DNA of 64,000 nt from assembly GCA_030141605.1 (NCBI GenBank), contig JAQGDQ010000006.1, forward strand, positions 372,001 through 436,000. Direction: 5' to 3'. Source of the DNA: Tubiluchus corallicola. Its lineage: Eukaryota; Animalia; Priapulida. Under the pieces are notes generated by a model, which worked only from the letters and a program-made list of their open reading frames with translations, did no database searches and had not been told where the DNA came from. Shown one piece after another: positions 40,812-45,700 of the stretch. Every line of letters starts with the position of its first letter. Positions within the stretch are counted from its first letter, which is position 1. Position numbers and translations under genes: made by a program.

Positions 40812-41098
40812 TCACAGATGTGGCAGCGAATCTTCATTGCCATCAATGCTATCATTCTTAGTTTGTTGAAGCTTCATTTTTCGTACAGCTTGTAAATTCA
40901 AAAAGTTAGCAGAACTCATCGGTCCCAGCTTCCGTATGATATCCATGTGACCGACTCGAGCAAATTGGGTAGCTTGGGAACTTGCTGCTACGTGTTTAGG
41001 AAAATCTTCGGTTACAATGTTGAGCCATGGGCACTGCTCCTTAAGATGCGAATGTGTGGCATTGTGCACTTGGTTTGGTAATACGTAATTCTTCATTT
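40812..41098 (-). CDS. TGF-beta prodomain-only protein exon 6 (terminal; no cystine knot)
   Basis: Acceptor ttcttttcatag|; CPWLNIVT resembles the final P.L.+ prodomain strand, followed by a Cys-free tail and TGA. Confidence 0.78.
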
Positions 41099-41585
41099 CT
41101 ATGAAAAGAAAAAGCTAAACAATGCCACCATAATTTTTTAGACTGCCAGGAGAGGAAGATTTTGTGTTTGTTATAAAATTTGCATATATCTTCTAGAAAA
41201 TTTTGAAGCTCTTTCATACTTTTTTTTTAGATAAAGCTGGATCTTTTTTTTGTTAGTGCTAGTTTATAGACTCTAAACTGACACGATCATAAGCTGTTAT
41301 GATTTCTAACATAAAAAATAATCAGGAATAGCTTTTGTATGTCCCACTGGATTTAATAAAACTTACATGCATAATAAAATAACTAAATTTGCAGCCAGTT
41401 TTATTATTAAACGAATAGTATAGCTTACGTTGCAAACTCAACATACATTACCGATAACTCAAATTAAAATTTGTATTCAAAAAAATCTGGGTAAAAGTTA
41501 GGAAATTATGAAATTAAAACTAAAATTAATGAAAATTTGATGAACTGCAATGTAAAGCTAATAAAATGAAATTAAGAGCACATAC

Positions 41586-41798
41586 GTGAATGAACAAGGA
41601 AAACTCGCGAACCTCTATGTACATCGCAGTTGAGTGGAGAAATGTATTGAAAAGGGGAAGCTGGTTCCCCTTGACTATCTTGAACCTTTATTTCCATGCC
41701 AAAGTTTTTGTGAGATTTTCTAATCCACTCCTTTATTAGGGATTTCATATTGAAACTGACCCATCCTTCTTGTTGCATTACCGGTTTTGTCCTCTTTA
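41586..41798 (-). CDS. TGF-beta prodomain-only protein exon 5
   Basis: EGWVSFNMKSLIKEWIRKSHKNFGMEIKV matches the GW..F.V...V..W......N.G+.+.V prodomain motif; an alternative donor at about 41613 has the same phase. Confidence 0.88.
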
Positions 41799-42337
41799 CT
41801 ATGTGGAAGAACAGTTTTACTTTAGTTGTCCAAACATGAATAAACTGTTTCAATGTGAATAGACTACCGAGTAAACCGTCTCAGTGAAGTATGCCACTAA
41901 ATCACGTAAGTATATTCAGTTGGGCTGACAGCAATTTTTTAAACATGTAGTTTCTTCTAAATCTTCAATACAATAATTAAGTTATCACTTTTACCAGTGT
42001 ATTAAACAGTATCTAAATGTATTACACGTATTCTTGATTAATAGTATTCCTAACTAATTATTAATGATAACCTCCAAGGTAAGAGACTGAGCCGACACAA
42101 GTGTTTTAGTCACATTCAGACGTGTATCCTTCAACGGAAAAAAGCTTGAGAGGGTATGACTGATAAAACGGTTCACAAGTAGATTTCTTGGTAGTCACCC
42201 ATGTATTTACTAACCATCCCAAGACTGCTAATTTATTTATATCATTATTAATACTGTAAAATATTATAACATAACGTGCAATTTGATTATGAAAATTAAC
42301 ATTACTATAAATGACATTTTCTACAGATCTGTCTCAC

Positions 42338-42504
42338 CTTGTAACTTTGTCAGGGTTGCCTCCACATAGTAATAGACACCTATCTGTATCTTCTCTACAT
42401 TCCGCTTATCATTGCGATTTTTTCTAACTTTATTGTTTCGCCGACCTCGTCGTGAACCAGATCTCTTCTTTCCGCGTTTTCGTCCTTCCTTTTTTGGAGT
42501 GGAT
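42338..42504 (-). CDS. TGF-beta prodomain-only protein exon 4 (basic insert)
   Basis: STPKKEGRKRGKKRSGSRRGRR..KIQIGVYYY; donor G|gtgaga; phases fit. Confidence 0.82.
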
Positions 42505-42789
42505 CTGATCGGGTAAATATGAAATTCAGACATTTAAATTGCCTGATTCGTGATGAATGTGTTTGATAGGTTAATTTGCATCAAATGGTCTGACGTTCGA
42601 GTCCAAGTAAAGGGAAAAATTTTTCAGACTTTCTCATTTAGCATTACTTTTTTGTAATTATATAACTGACTGACTTCGTTGTTTGCCTTGATGCAGTGTG
42701 GACCATGTTTCCCTATTAATAGACCTCTTACGGCTTATTTTCTAAATTTCTTGGTCTGAAAAGTTAGAGTCCATGGTTTGTAATAGTTA

Positions 42790-42850
42790 ACATTAAATGC
42801 CCGGAAGTCAGAAGGCCCTGGTGTTCGAGTCCCAACAGAGGTGCAAAAAT
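42790..42850 (+). mobile_element. Possible tRNA-derived SINE remnant
   Basis: B-box-like gttcgagtccc at about 42823, another at about 42594; no full cloverleaf. Confidence 0.25.
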
Positions 42851-43029
42851 TTATCAGGCTTGGTAATTTGATATTACTTTTGTGCGTTTGCATAATTGAA
42901 TACGTTTTAGTGAATGACGGGATGGTAAACAACATACATACATGTAAATCATACTAAGTTACACAATAAACTTATACAACGTCATATAGGCCTACGAATA
43001 GCAAAGATATAAATGTTGTCTAAACTTGC

Positions 43030-43237
43030 CTTTCAATCCTATGATTTGTTTCCAAGCTTTCATTGTTTGTGGCATTACTACTATGAGGAATGAGGTATAA
43101 TCTCAAGGTAGCAGAAGACACCTTGGTTTCCACCAAATCCGTTTGTTTAGTCTCAAATTCAGATACATCGAAATAAAGTCTGAACAAATTGGTGCTGTTC
43201 CATTCGACTCCTTCCGCCAAATGCTCAGGTGGATAGC
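43030..43237 (-). CDS. TGF-beta prodomain-only protein exon 3
   Basis: CYPP..W..LFRLYFDVS...VSSATLRLY matches the arm-domain L.F.+S and A.LRLY strands; ends at a GC donor AG|gcaagt. Confidence 0.87.
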
Positions 43238-44236
43238 CTAATTAACGAATGTGCATTAAATGAAGCAAAAAATACACAAATAATTTAACCGTGTATTTAA
43301 AAAATCGGTAATTATCCTATACATCCAGCATATAACACAAAAACATACGTAGCGTATGCATGCATAGGTAACACATTAGAAAGTTTTTTTCAACTCTGGC
43401 GACTGTAAGGAGTCGGTCACCTTATGACTATATCGTTTAGTCGCAGGCAAGTGAGGTGGCAAAAGTTGAGCGCGTGCAGCAGGCATTAACACCAAATCCG
43501 CTACAAAAGATGCACCAACTTCACATTTTACCGTTTATACATCTGGCGTAATTTCCCCTCAGACGAGTTTGCAGTACTGGCAGACGTCCAACTTAAAAAC
43601 GTCTGAAGGTCGATGGAAAGTTAACAAGCAGATTGTTGACGTAACGTCTGGCAGCTTTTCATTTGTATATTAATGAAATTCAGAACGAACGTTCAATAAA
43701 TGACAAGAGATATTTACTTTTTAAGTACTTACAAACCAATATGACATCGCGCTTTTGTTTTTTCGAGTGTTAATGTAGTTGTTAATGTTATTAAAATAAT
43801 ATTATAGATCTTACAGACAGCGAAATTCGATGACAGGAAAACTATTTGATATGGAAAAGTTATAATAATTATTCGGCGAAGGGAGAATAAGAACTTAATA
43901 AAGTACCCACAAATAAAAGCACATTAAACGCGTCATTTTGCAACCATTTTTAAACCTCAGTTTGACTCGCCCACTGTTTAAATCACTCTCGTGCAGCATA
44001 ATATGGTAAGCATTCGAAATCGCTTTTGGCGCAAAAAGGTATGGCTTTTTGGACCAAGTCATCCCTCCAGGTCAATAAACTGCTTTACAACTTGTCAGCT
44101 TAGCTTCGTTGTGGGTCACAGAACTAATCGAGTTTCATTTAAACAAGCTAGGCAAATTTCTAGGACGGGTTTCATCTTATTAAATTTACAAAAGTATAAA
44201 GCGATTACGAAACGTAATGTGCTGCACACCACTTAC

Positions 44237-44484
44237 AAGATCCCGGTGCGCTCTTAAATTTCTTCGTGTAGATGACCTGGCTACTGACACCTGAATTGTC
44301 TCCACCCTCTTCCTCTGTTGTAACGTAGTTACGCTCAAAAAGATCCATTAGGTTCTCCCTCTCCTCCTCCGTGAACACGTTAGAGGTAATATTTGGCTTT
44401 CTCTTCAGGCCCAGTCTCCGCAGGATCTCGGCTTGAATTTGGATCAACCGCGCCTGTCGTTTCCTTTCAACATAGTTATTTTCT
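44237..44484 (-). CDS. TGF-beta prodomain-only protein exon 2 (alpha1 helix and latency lasso)
   Basis: RLIQIQAEILRRLGLKRKPNIT matches the TGF-beta family straitjacket motif R+..I+.+IL.+L.L..xP. Confidence 0.9.
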
Positions 44485-45443
44485 CTGTTATTTTCAATGT
44501 TCATGTTAACGCATGTTGACATTAATAATCATTAATGGTTGGAAAAGTATTTAAAACAAAATTCTCTAAAACTTTGTGGCTAGTGCCACGCTGACTACAC
44601 ACAAAAATGGCAAATCAAACAATATGGAATTTATTGCAAGGAATTTTACTGGTGGGGCAAATTCAAGTAATATGAATCTTTATGTTTGATTTTACTTGGC
44701 CAACCTGTTGGGGGTCTCGGGGATGGACAAGTTATTTTACGGTCATGTTTCATAGGCATAAACATGTAAGCAGTGCTTGAATGGAAGAGAGTTAATCTGT
44801 TGTGCACTGCCGGAAGCCGAAGTGTAATGCTTTAAAAACACTTCTGGCAATGAGGCAAGTACGACCAACGAATAGAGGGGCAGATGCCCACCATTAAAAA
44901 ATTTTGCAGTAAAAAATTACCTCATACATTTATGCAAAATTCCAAACACGAATTTCTCACTTTGGGCCTAATAAACGTAAGTGTTTTTTTGAGCTTTTGG
45001 AATTAACAATTGAAGATCGTAACACAAATTCATTAAATGTACTAACCCAATTTTTACTATTTAGCAATTTCTCGATTATTAGATTACTTCTTTGTAACAA
45101 AAATATACCATCTGCATAATAACTCTGATAGTTCTGAAAATTTCAAGCGGCTTTTATCAATGCGTTTGCATCTAAAATTAAGCTACTCAAGGAGACATTG
45201 CATAAAAACGGCTTTGGGGCAATATCGCTATTAAAATTTGTAAAATTTTAACTTGTAATGCTTTTACAGCAAACCACTTTTCAGATTATATCGTTTAATA
45301 TTTTTGCTTTTTATAACAGATATGATTGACCCTGTTGTATTTTGAAGTGCAATCGGATTTAGTTGTTTATTTGAAAGTGAGCTGTAGGTAAATAACGCAT
45401 ATAAATCGACTATAGGTTATACATACATCGCGCAAATACGCAC

Positions 45444-45700
45444 CTTTCTCGCTTCCTTAAAATTGCTAGTGTTTCGTAATCCAGCGTTGCTGAGACGTTG
45501 TATGCTTCGCTTCCATTTGAAAGTTTTTCATTGGCAGTTAAGTCTGTTTCACTTGTATTTACATTATTTATTGCCTGATTTTTCAAGCTTTCCAACGTTT
45601 CAAGTTCCATAGGTGATTTAGTCGGATCGATGACTGCAAAACTAGATACTAGTAACACTAATGTACTGAACACAAAGTTTACCTTCACAAAAAAATCCAT
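45444..45700 (-). CDS. Secreted TGF-beta prodomain-only (anachronism-like) protein, exon 1 of 6 (1380 nt, 459 aa in total)
   Basis: MDFFVKVNFVFSTLVLLVSSFA signal peptide, several NxS/T sites, donor AG|gtgcgt. Confidence 0.82.

Follow-up and report, generated by a model that had tools for sequence, protein, structure and literature searches.

A TGF-beta-family gene encoding only a prodomain

The 64-kb window analyzed here (the whole stretch from position 372,001 to 436,000 of contig JAQGDQ010000006.1, assembly GCA_030141605.1, of the priapulid Tubiluchus corallicola) contains a real, conserved gene of the TGF-beta family that encodes a prodomain and no growth factor, which confirms the observation reported in a first-pass annotation of this DNA. 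The gene consists of six exons on the minus strand, which join into 1380 nucleotides (459 codons and a TGA) free of internal stops and with junction phases that all fit. Four introns are of the GT-AG type and the frames are open, in keeping with the earlier description of the splice sites as intact; intron 3, however, requires a GC-AG pair (donor AAG/GCAAGT), a point absent from that description. Note that this GC donor (43029–43030, minus strand) is what keeps exon 4 in frame in the gene model, as judged from the sequence.

Exon 1 (45444–45700) carries the ATG, a predicted signal peptide and glycosylated N-terminal spacer, the start of helix 1 and a TLDYET motif common with the Priapulus protein described below. 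Exon 2 (44237–44484) encodes helix 1, the latency lasso (KPNIT), helix 2 and the fastener, i.e. the straitjacket predicted to grip the growth factor. The jelly-roll arm is distributed over the other four exons: (i) exon 3 (43030–43237), with Cys169 in a split codon, strands LYFDVS and ATLRLY and the GC donor at its end; (ii) exon 4 (42338–42504), with a basic loop (18 Lys or Arg among 32 residues, including RxxR motifs) and strand KIQIGVY; (iii) exon 5 (41586–41798), with the arm core (GWVSFN, W, NFGMEI) and Cys351; (iv) exon 6 (40812–41098), with the last strand (CPWLNI, Cys387), a Cys-free, non-conserved tail and the TGA. All the prodomain motifs quoted in the first-pass annotation are present, in the order given there. 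A sequence scan located a candidate polyadenylation signal (AATAAA, 40657–40662, minus strand) about 150 nucleotides past the stop. The N-terminus is hydrophobic over residues 3–24, the Kyte-Doolittle mean over 15 residues peaking at 2.47 at residue 10. The protein, which may have a signal peptide and be secreted, displays nine N-glycosylation sequons (NxS/T).

Scanned singly, three of the six exons match Pfam TGFb_propeptide (PF00688), namely exon 5 (E 9e-7, which passes the curated cut-off), exon 2 (E 6e-5) and exon 3 (E 0.026). With a family prodomain profile, the frames containing exons 5, 2, 3, 4 and 6 rank as the top five of the 3552 six-frame peptides of the window, the first three being significant (E 2.5e-20 for exon 2 and 2.9e-9 for exon 3). 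The window gene thus has the prodomain of TGF-beta ligand precursors, with both the straitjacket and the arm.

Absence of a growth factor in the window

Ligand precursors also contain a furin-type site that separates the prodomain from the growth factor, and a C-terminal cystine-knot growth factor; the window protein has neither. Joining the exons reproduced the 459-residue in-frame protein first described, with three cysteines (Cys169, Cys351 and Cys387) and no RxxR after the last strand. Six RxxR motifs are found, all inside the prodomain (at residues 95, 235, 256, 257, 265 and 355), and the 73 residues from Cys387 to the end are Cys-free beyond Cys387. None of the six exons scanned singly matches Pfam TGF_beta (PF00019), so that the Pfam check turned out as foreseen for both domains.

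A growth-factor profile derived from seven such domains of relatives gave no match among the 3552 six-frame peptides, the best E being 1.9; as a positive control, 14 of 14 held-out half-domains were recovered at E <= 0.0014. Because of this combination, we conclude that there is no growth-factor exon in the 40.8 kb downstream of the prodomain gene, a segment that includes three other genes, for an aldo-keto reductase, SR-25 and BAMBI. This bears out, for the whole window, the earlier statement that no cystine-knot exon precedes the end of the convergent gene, which had been placed about 1.3 kb away and whose last predicted exon indeed stops at 39498, 1313 nucleotides from the TGA. Regular-expression scans of the window for cystine-knot motifs yielded scattered chance matches only. 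Stop-codon read-through was rejected as a route to a growth factor: the extension comprises 19 residues and is Cys-free.

A prodomain-only orthologue in Priapulus caudatus

A HMMER search with exon 5 among 1.84 billion representative sequences gave a protein of Priapulus as the best match (E 2.5e-12). The 41 matches comprise seven long animal proteins, 21 short unnamed fragments and 13 others, of which 12 carry carbohydrate-module repeats (CBM96/disaggregatase-repeat proteins), according to a Pfam scan covering 27 of the 41 matches. A further unnamed fragment (P0061) shares 57% identity with the Priapulus protein. Homologue searches of a word index, made with exons 5 and 2, gave no match, a blank that carries no weight as absence, and neither does the yield of a crowded alignment search, with three matches among 7991 candidates.

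The Priapulus gene, LOC106807157 of P. caudatus (XP_014664911-3, annotated as 'uncharacterized protein'), encodes proteins that are 37% identical to the window protein over 411–415 columns (E 2e-64 to 5e-67). All three predicted isoforms (470–479 residues) resemble the window protein in that they contain PF00688 only, have a Cys-free tail and no growth factor, and share the TLDYET, basic loop and CPWL features. Both end exons of the window gene match the Priapulus protein when searched separately. For exon 1, 14 of 29 residues are identical to isoform X1 (P0043) by BLASTP, and the match stops at the residue where isoforms X1 and X2 part; for exon 6, 12 of 19 residues are identical to residues 380–398 of P0043, with a tail that is 20% identical. 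Exon 4 also matches P0043 (BLASTP E 3e-4). More generally, the isoform breakpoints lie at or near the exon 1–2 and 5–6 junctions of the window gene. Identity is highest in the straitjacket (57% over residues 67–140), followed by the arm (42%), the tail and loops being 20–30% conserved.

The Priapulus protein, which is predicted and uncharacterized, differs from the window protein by its tail and by three extra cysteines in the strand-1 segment. There, P0043 (residues 162–178) departs from the family motif as it gains the cysteines, and the model may be locally frameshifted; in a test for a compensated frameshift, the score of the actual sequence was equaled by 4 to 30 of 150 shuffles. Note also that exon 5 of the window gene contains a weak, in-phase alternative GT donor (41612–41613, minus strand) where Priapulus isoform X3 loses nine residues, so that alternative splicing at this donor is possibly shared by both genes.

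A spliced contig and selection

A 245-nucleotide contig of a presumed RNA run (X2), whose type was guessed and which was chosen by its species label, is about 94% identical to the window and was taken as coming from a relative. It spans 42338–42480 of exon 4 and joins 42338 to 41798 of exon 5, intron 4 being removed exactly. Cover stops at this exon 4–5 junction, and the blank at the other junctions and at the 3' end carries no weight as absence. There are 15 differences in all; among the seven listed, six are synonymous and one replaces Ile by Val. The synonymous bias (P 0.0005–0.002 under neutrality) shows purifying selection on the prodomain gene.

Relatives and origin of the gene

The next-closest full-length relatives, which are 23–29% identical to the window protein (E 1e-21 to 3e-24), are a spider protein (GFR18909.1, 'TGF_BETA_2 domain-containing'), a nemertean protein (XP_074658705.1, 'BMP4-like') and three unnamed Logan proteins. 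These members of a protostome group share with the window protein a PSC...NC cysteine pair, the Trp before strand 1 and the last strand but, unlike it, have retained a growth factor (PF00019 in five of five) together with a furin-type site. Their growth factors are divergent: the interchain cysteine is missing from three of the five, and the wrist loop is much shortened in two. In all seven full-length group members compared, there are cysteines aligned with Cys169 and Cys351 of the window protein; they may form an internal disulfide, which would leave Cys387 free.

In a prodomain tree of nine rows, the window and Priapulus proteins are sisters (support 99/100); since myostatin, activin, TGF-beta, Maverick and Anachronism are not represented in it, the tree does not place the wider group. 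An exon-5 tree of 29 rows and 58 columns, from which P0038 was omitted, again pairs the two proteins (97/84) without settling the deeper forks. The terminal branch of the window protein is long (0.85 changes per column). By sequence comparison, the closest relatives are not myostatin, activin or TGF-beta themselves; they belong to an unnamed group of protostome proteins whose growth factors have diverged. Since these nearest relatives keep a divergent growth factor, the simplest reading is that the window gene derives from a ligand gene of this group and likely lost its growth factor secondarily.

Several observations concern other proteins of the TGF-beta family. In P0028, P0034 and P0035, which belong to the protostome group, the growth factor lacks the interchain cysteine, with a very short wrist loop in two of them, which makes these proteins candidate antagonists; a missing interchain cysteine and a short wrist loop recall antagonist-type ligands such as Lefty. 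The 890-residue protein XP_044005754.1 of the wasp Aphidius gifuensis (P0004) displays three tandem prodomain matches followed by one BMP-like growth factor, and is either a real tandem prodomain or a product of fused gene models. Finally, 'two divergent BMP sequences', mentioned in the accessible text of the paper on the Strigamia genome (PMC4244043), might belong to the protostome group.

Predicted fold and growth-factor contacts

An AlphaFold model of Priapulus isoform X1, built from a 26-row alignment, has a predicted local distance difference test (pLDDT) score of about 85–95 in helix 1 and in the arm core. The model matches the arms of known prodomains, with pro-activin A ranking first (Z 12.7, root mean square deviation 2.7 over 132 residues), followed by BMP10 (Z 11.9), pro-myostatin (11.4) and pro-TGF-beta2 (11.1); the arm also matches carbohydrate-binding modules (Z 10.2 for a bacterial one, and 8.7). 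With Foldseek, each of the 25 rows shown, the last of which has rank 41, is a pro-protein of the TGF-beta family. Likewise, a PDB sequence search with the family profile gave pro-GDF8 (E 4e-11) and pro-TGF-beta2 (E 8e-11) as best matches. Using exon 2 alone, PDB searches gave chance matches only and all ESM Atlas matches stayed below 0.9; a single-sequence fold of P0001 (pLDDT 42.6) was too low for use.

The check by complex prediction proposed in the first-pass annotation was run with stand-ins, i.e. residues 61–400 of the Priapulus protein and the growth factor of the nemertean relative. The complex scored 0.61, compared to 0.14 for the best of three controls, and passed a mark that is reached by 51 of 78 solved pairs and by 2 of 108 mismatched pairs. 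Agreement between runs extends to at least 64% of the contacts, with a partner pLDDT of at least 68, and the predicted interface is formed by helices 1 and 2 together with the lasso and the fastener. At the predicted interface positions, 21 of 31 residues are identical between the window and Priapulus proteins, versus 112 of 285 elsewhere (Fisher P 0.002); inside the straitjacket, the figures are 18 of 24 for contact positions and 12 of 26 for the others. This face has been kept after the protein lost its own partner and, therefore, likely still grips something.

A prodomain acting in trans?

We give about an even chance to the idea that the gene product is a secreted, complete TGF-beta-family prodomain that acts in trans on the growth factors of other genes, thereby dampening or buffering signaling. 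According to this model, the prodomain glycoprotein, derived from a ligand gene of the unnamed protostome group whose growth-factor part was lost, would be secreted and would wrap the growth factors of other TGF-beta genes with its conserved helix-1/lasso/helix-2 surface, either by capturing them after secretion or by pairing with their precursors in the secretory pathway. The basic loop, which is retained in both priapulid proteins, might tether the prodomain to heparan sulfate or be nicked by furin. Binding would probably be reversible, as for activin or BMP9, rather than a myostatin-type lock, because only one of the four helix-1 residues linked to latency is kept. These residues (R52, K57, S62 and R65 of myostatin) are tied to latency in the accessible part of a preprint (bioRxiv 10.1101/2021.06.24.449816), R52 being the one kept (R98 in the window protein). 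In addition, the fastener reads I-Y-T in the window protein and F-Y-A in the Priapulus protein, in place of the Y-H/Y-A of latent-type prodomains.

Precedents exist for the activity of free prodomains. The prodomains of myostatin/GDF8, TGF-beta1-3 (LAP), activin A and BMP9/10 and the avian MSTN-B isoform have the same fold and straitjacket as the window protein; they arise by cleavage or alternative splicing from the gene of a ligand, whereas the window prodomain has a separate gene and lacks most latency-linked residues. Inhibition by the free prodomain is described as occurring at about 1 nM for myostatin, against about 100 nM for BMP9 (bioRxiv 10.1101/154823, available text), and MSTN-B is described as binding and neutralizing full-length myostatin (PMC12650688, available text). 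If the model is true, a conserved prodomain-only gene defines a further class of extracellular TGF-beta regulator, prodomains having so far been by-products of the ligand's own gene.

Several points weigh against this reading. Regarding growth-factor binding and lowered Smad signaling, the evidence consists of the docking prediction with stand-ins and the conservation of the contacts, the trap function being a predicted one. The complex was built from the Priapulus protein and a partner from another phylum; as similar complexes have already been solved, the docking pass may show likeness only. Furthermore, the model of the Priapulus protein has a mean pLDDT of only 63.6 and a predicted template modeling score of 0.49, the contact set is taken from the predicted complex itself, and in amphipathic helices the hydrophobic side can be conserved for reasons other than ligand contact. 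All Priapulus isoforms are predicted ones, and the RNA evidence is one contig, about 94% identical, of a run of guessed type, at the exon 4–5 junction only. Last, the poor retention of the latency residues counts against a tight lock. The trans-acting trap or chaperone proposed in the first-pass annotation therefore remains plausible, strengthened by the docking prediction and the conserved contact face, with a tight lock disfavored.

Binding in trans could instead help the ligand, the prodomain being a folding chaperone, a carrier or a matrix depot that extends its range or half-life. This alternative, which we hold to be unlikely, relies on the same conserved contact face and would fit the scarcity of latency-linked residues and the retention of the basic loop in both species; prodomain fragments, moreover, can shield a growth factor from inhibitors, as stated in the available text of bioRxiv 10.1101/154823. 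However, the free prodomains tested so far inhibit, and the look-alike Anachronism is reported, in the text available, to keep neuroblasts quiescent, activin-type ligands and Gbb being the ones that drive their proliferation (PMC5829083).

Quite unlikely, in our opinion, is a ligand-independent role, in which the prodomain would be a matrix glycoprotein or would itself engage a receptor or carbohydrate of its own via the jelly-roll arm and basic loop. The arm fold is common to carbohydrate-binding modules, 12 of the 41 exon-5 matches are CBM96/disaggregatase-repeat proteins, the protein has nine sequons, and Anachronism is classed as an extracellular matrix glycoprotein in the accessible part of PMC7852309; yet it is the straitjacket that is conserved above the arm, and the predicted ligand contacts are the best-conserved positions.

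That the gene is an ordinary ligand gene, with a growth-factor exon outside the window and an exon 6 whose stop belongs to one isoform, appears very improbable. RNA cover was seen at the exon 4–5 junction and not over the exon 5–6 junction or the 3' end, the growth-factor search spanned the 64-kb window, and the close relatives all have a growth factor, but the 40.8 kb downstream, across three other genes, contain no growth-factor exon, the last strand and the stop lie in one exon that lacks a furin site, and the three Priapulus isoforms all end in a Cys-free tail.

Finally, a decaying truncated duplicate, as the long terminal branch and the poorly conserved tail and loops could suggest, is largely refuted by a 459-codon frame that is open over six exons, by conservation centered on the motifs despite an orthologue that is 63% diverged, and by the spliced contig and its synonymous bias. 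The earlier claim of a real prodomain-only gene that arose from a ligand gene and is not a pseudogene is therefore well supported, since the orthologue is also prodomain-only and the relatives bear a growth factor.

Resemblance to insect Anachronism

Anachronism was reportedly described by Ebens in 1993 as a glycoprotein secreted by glia that acts as a brake on neuroblast division. The likeness to this protein suspected in the first-pass annotation holds as a resemblance: in the ESM Atlas, the Priapulus protein has as its first-ranked neighbor (0.95, 201 of 256 features) a cluster of 55 arthropod members that bears the name 'protein anachronism isoform X2', with PF00688 on 56% of them and PF00019 not among the listed domains. 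The window protein shares the traits of that family, i.e. a predicted secreted-type glycoprotein with a prodomain only and no growth factor. Orthology is a conjecture here, as the name comes from the Atlas cluster and no protein named Anachronism was returned by the homologue searches or cluster look-ups. LEFTY2 and TGF-beta1 prodomain fragments are nearly equal neighbors (0.95 and 0.94), so that the match may reflect architecture only.

The available portion of a 2019 matrisome table, in which Drosophila ana (Q26307) is an extracellular matrix glycoprotein, gives it no InterPro domain (PMC7852309). Glial Ana is reported to hold neuroblasts quiescent, and activin signaling and Gbb to support neuroblast proliferation (PMC5829083, text available); by analogy, these opposite roles fit a trap. 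In the literature within reach, which excluded most subscription papers, we found neither a link of Anachronism to prodomains nor a description of a prodomain-only TGF-beta gene.

One could go further and propose that the window gene, its Priapulus orthologue and insect Anachronism form one ancient, unnamed protostome TGF-beta lineage in which the growth factor decayed, as in spiders and others, and was then lost, probably more than once, giving rise to prodomain-only traps; in flies, Anachronism would then trap activin-type ligands or Gbb and thereby keep neural stem cells in quiescence. We regard this scenario as possible but lean against it. PF00688 is already annotated on many Anachronism homologues in databases. 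What appears to be new is therefore not the domain assignment but the evolutionary series, along with the trap mechanism. The trap idea turns a glial brake known since 1993 into a directly testable question.

Genomic neighborhood

The convergent gene on the plus strand (28187–39498) is an aldo-keto reductase gene, identified from its upstream exon at 28187; its last two short exons have no Pfam match when scanned alone. On the other side, upstream of the prodomain gene, lies a BTB-BACK-Kelch gene (48393–51564, minus strand). The window also contains an SR-25 open frame (16678–17337, minus strand) and a BAMBI gene (10440–12679, plus strand) with both Pfam domains. BAMBI is a TGF-beta pseudoreceptor and its gene lies 28 kb from the prodomain-only gene, a linkage that may be due to chance. 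Lastly, positions 21984–23163, 33715–34404 and 36847–37254 are occupied by a long CAC/CAT-rich low-complexity tract with similar flanking segments, a frame resembling that of a retroelement and a fragment of a DDE transposase.

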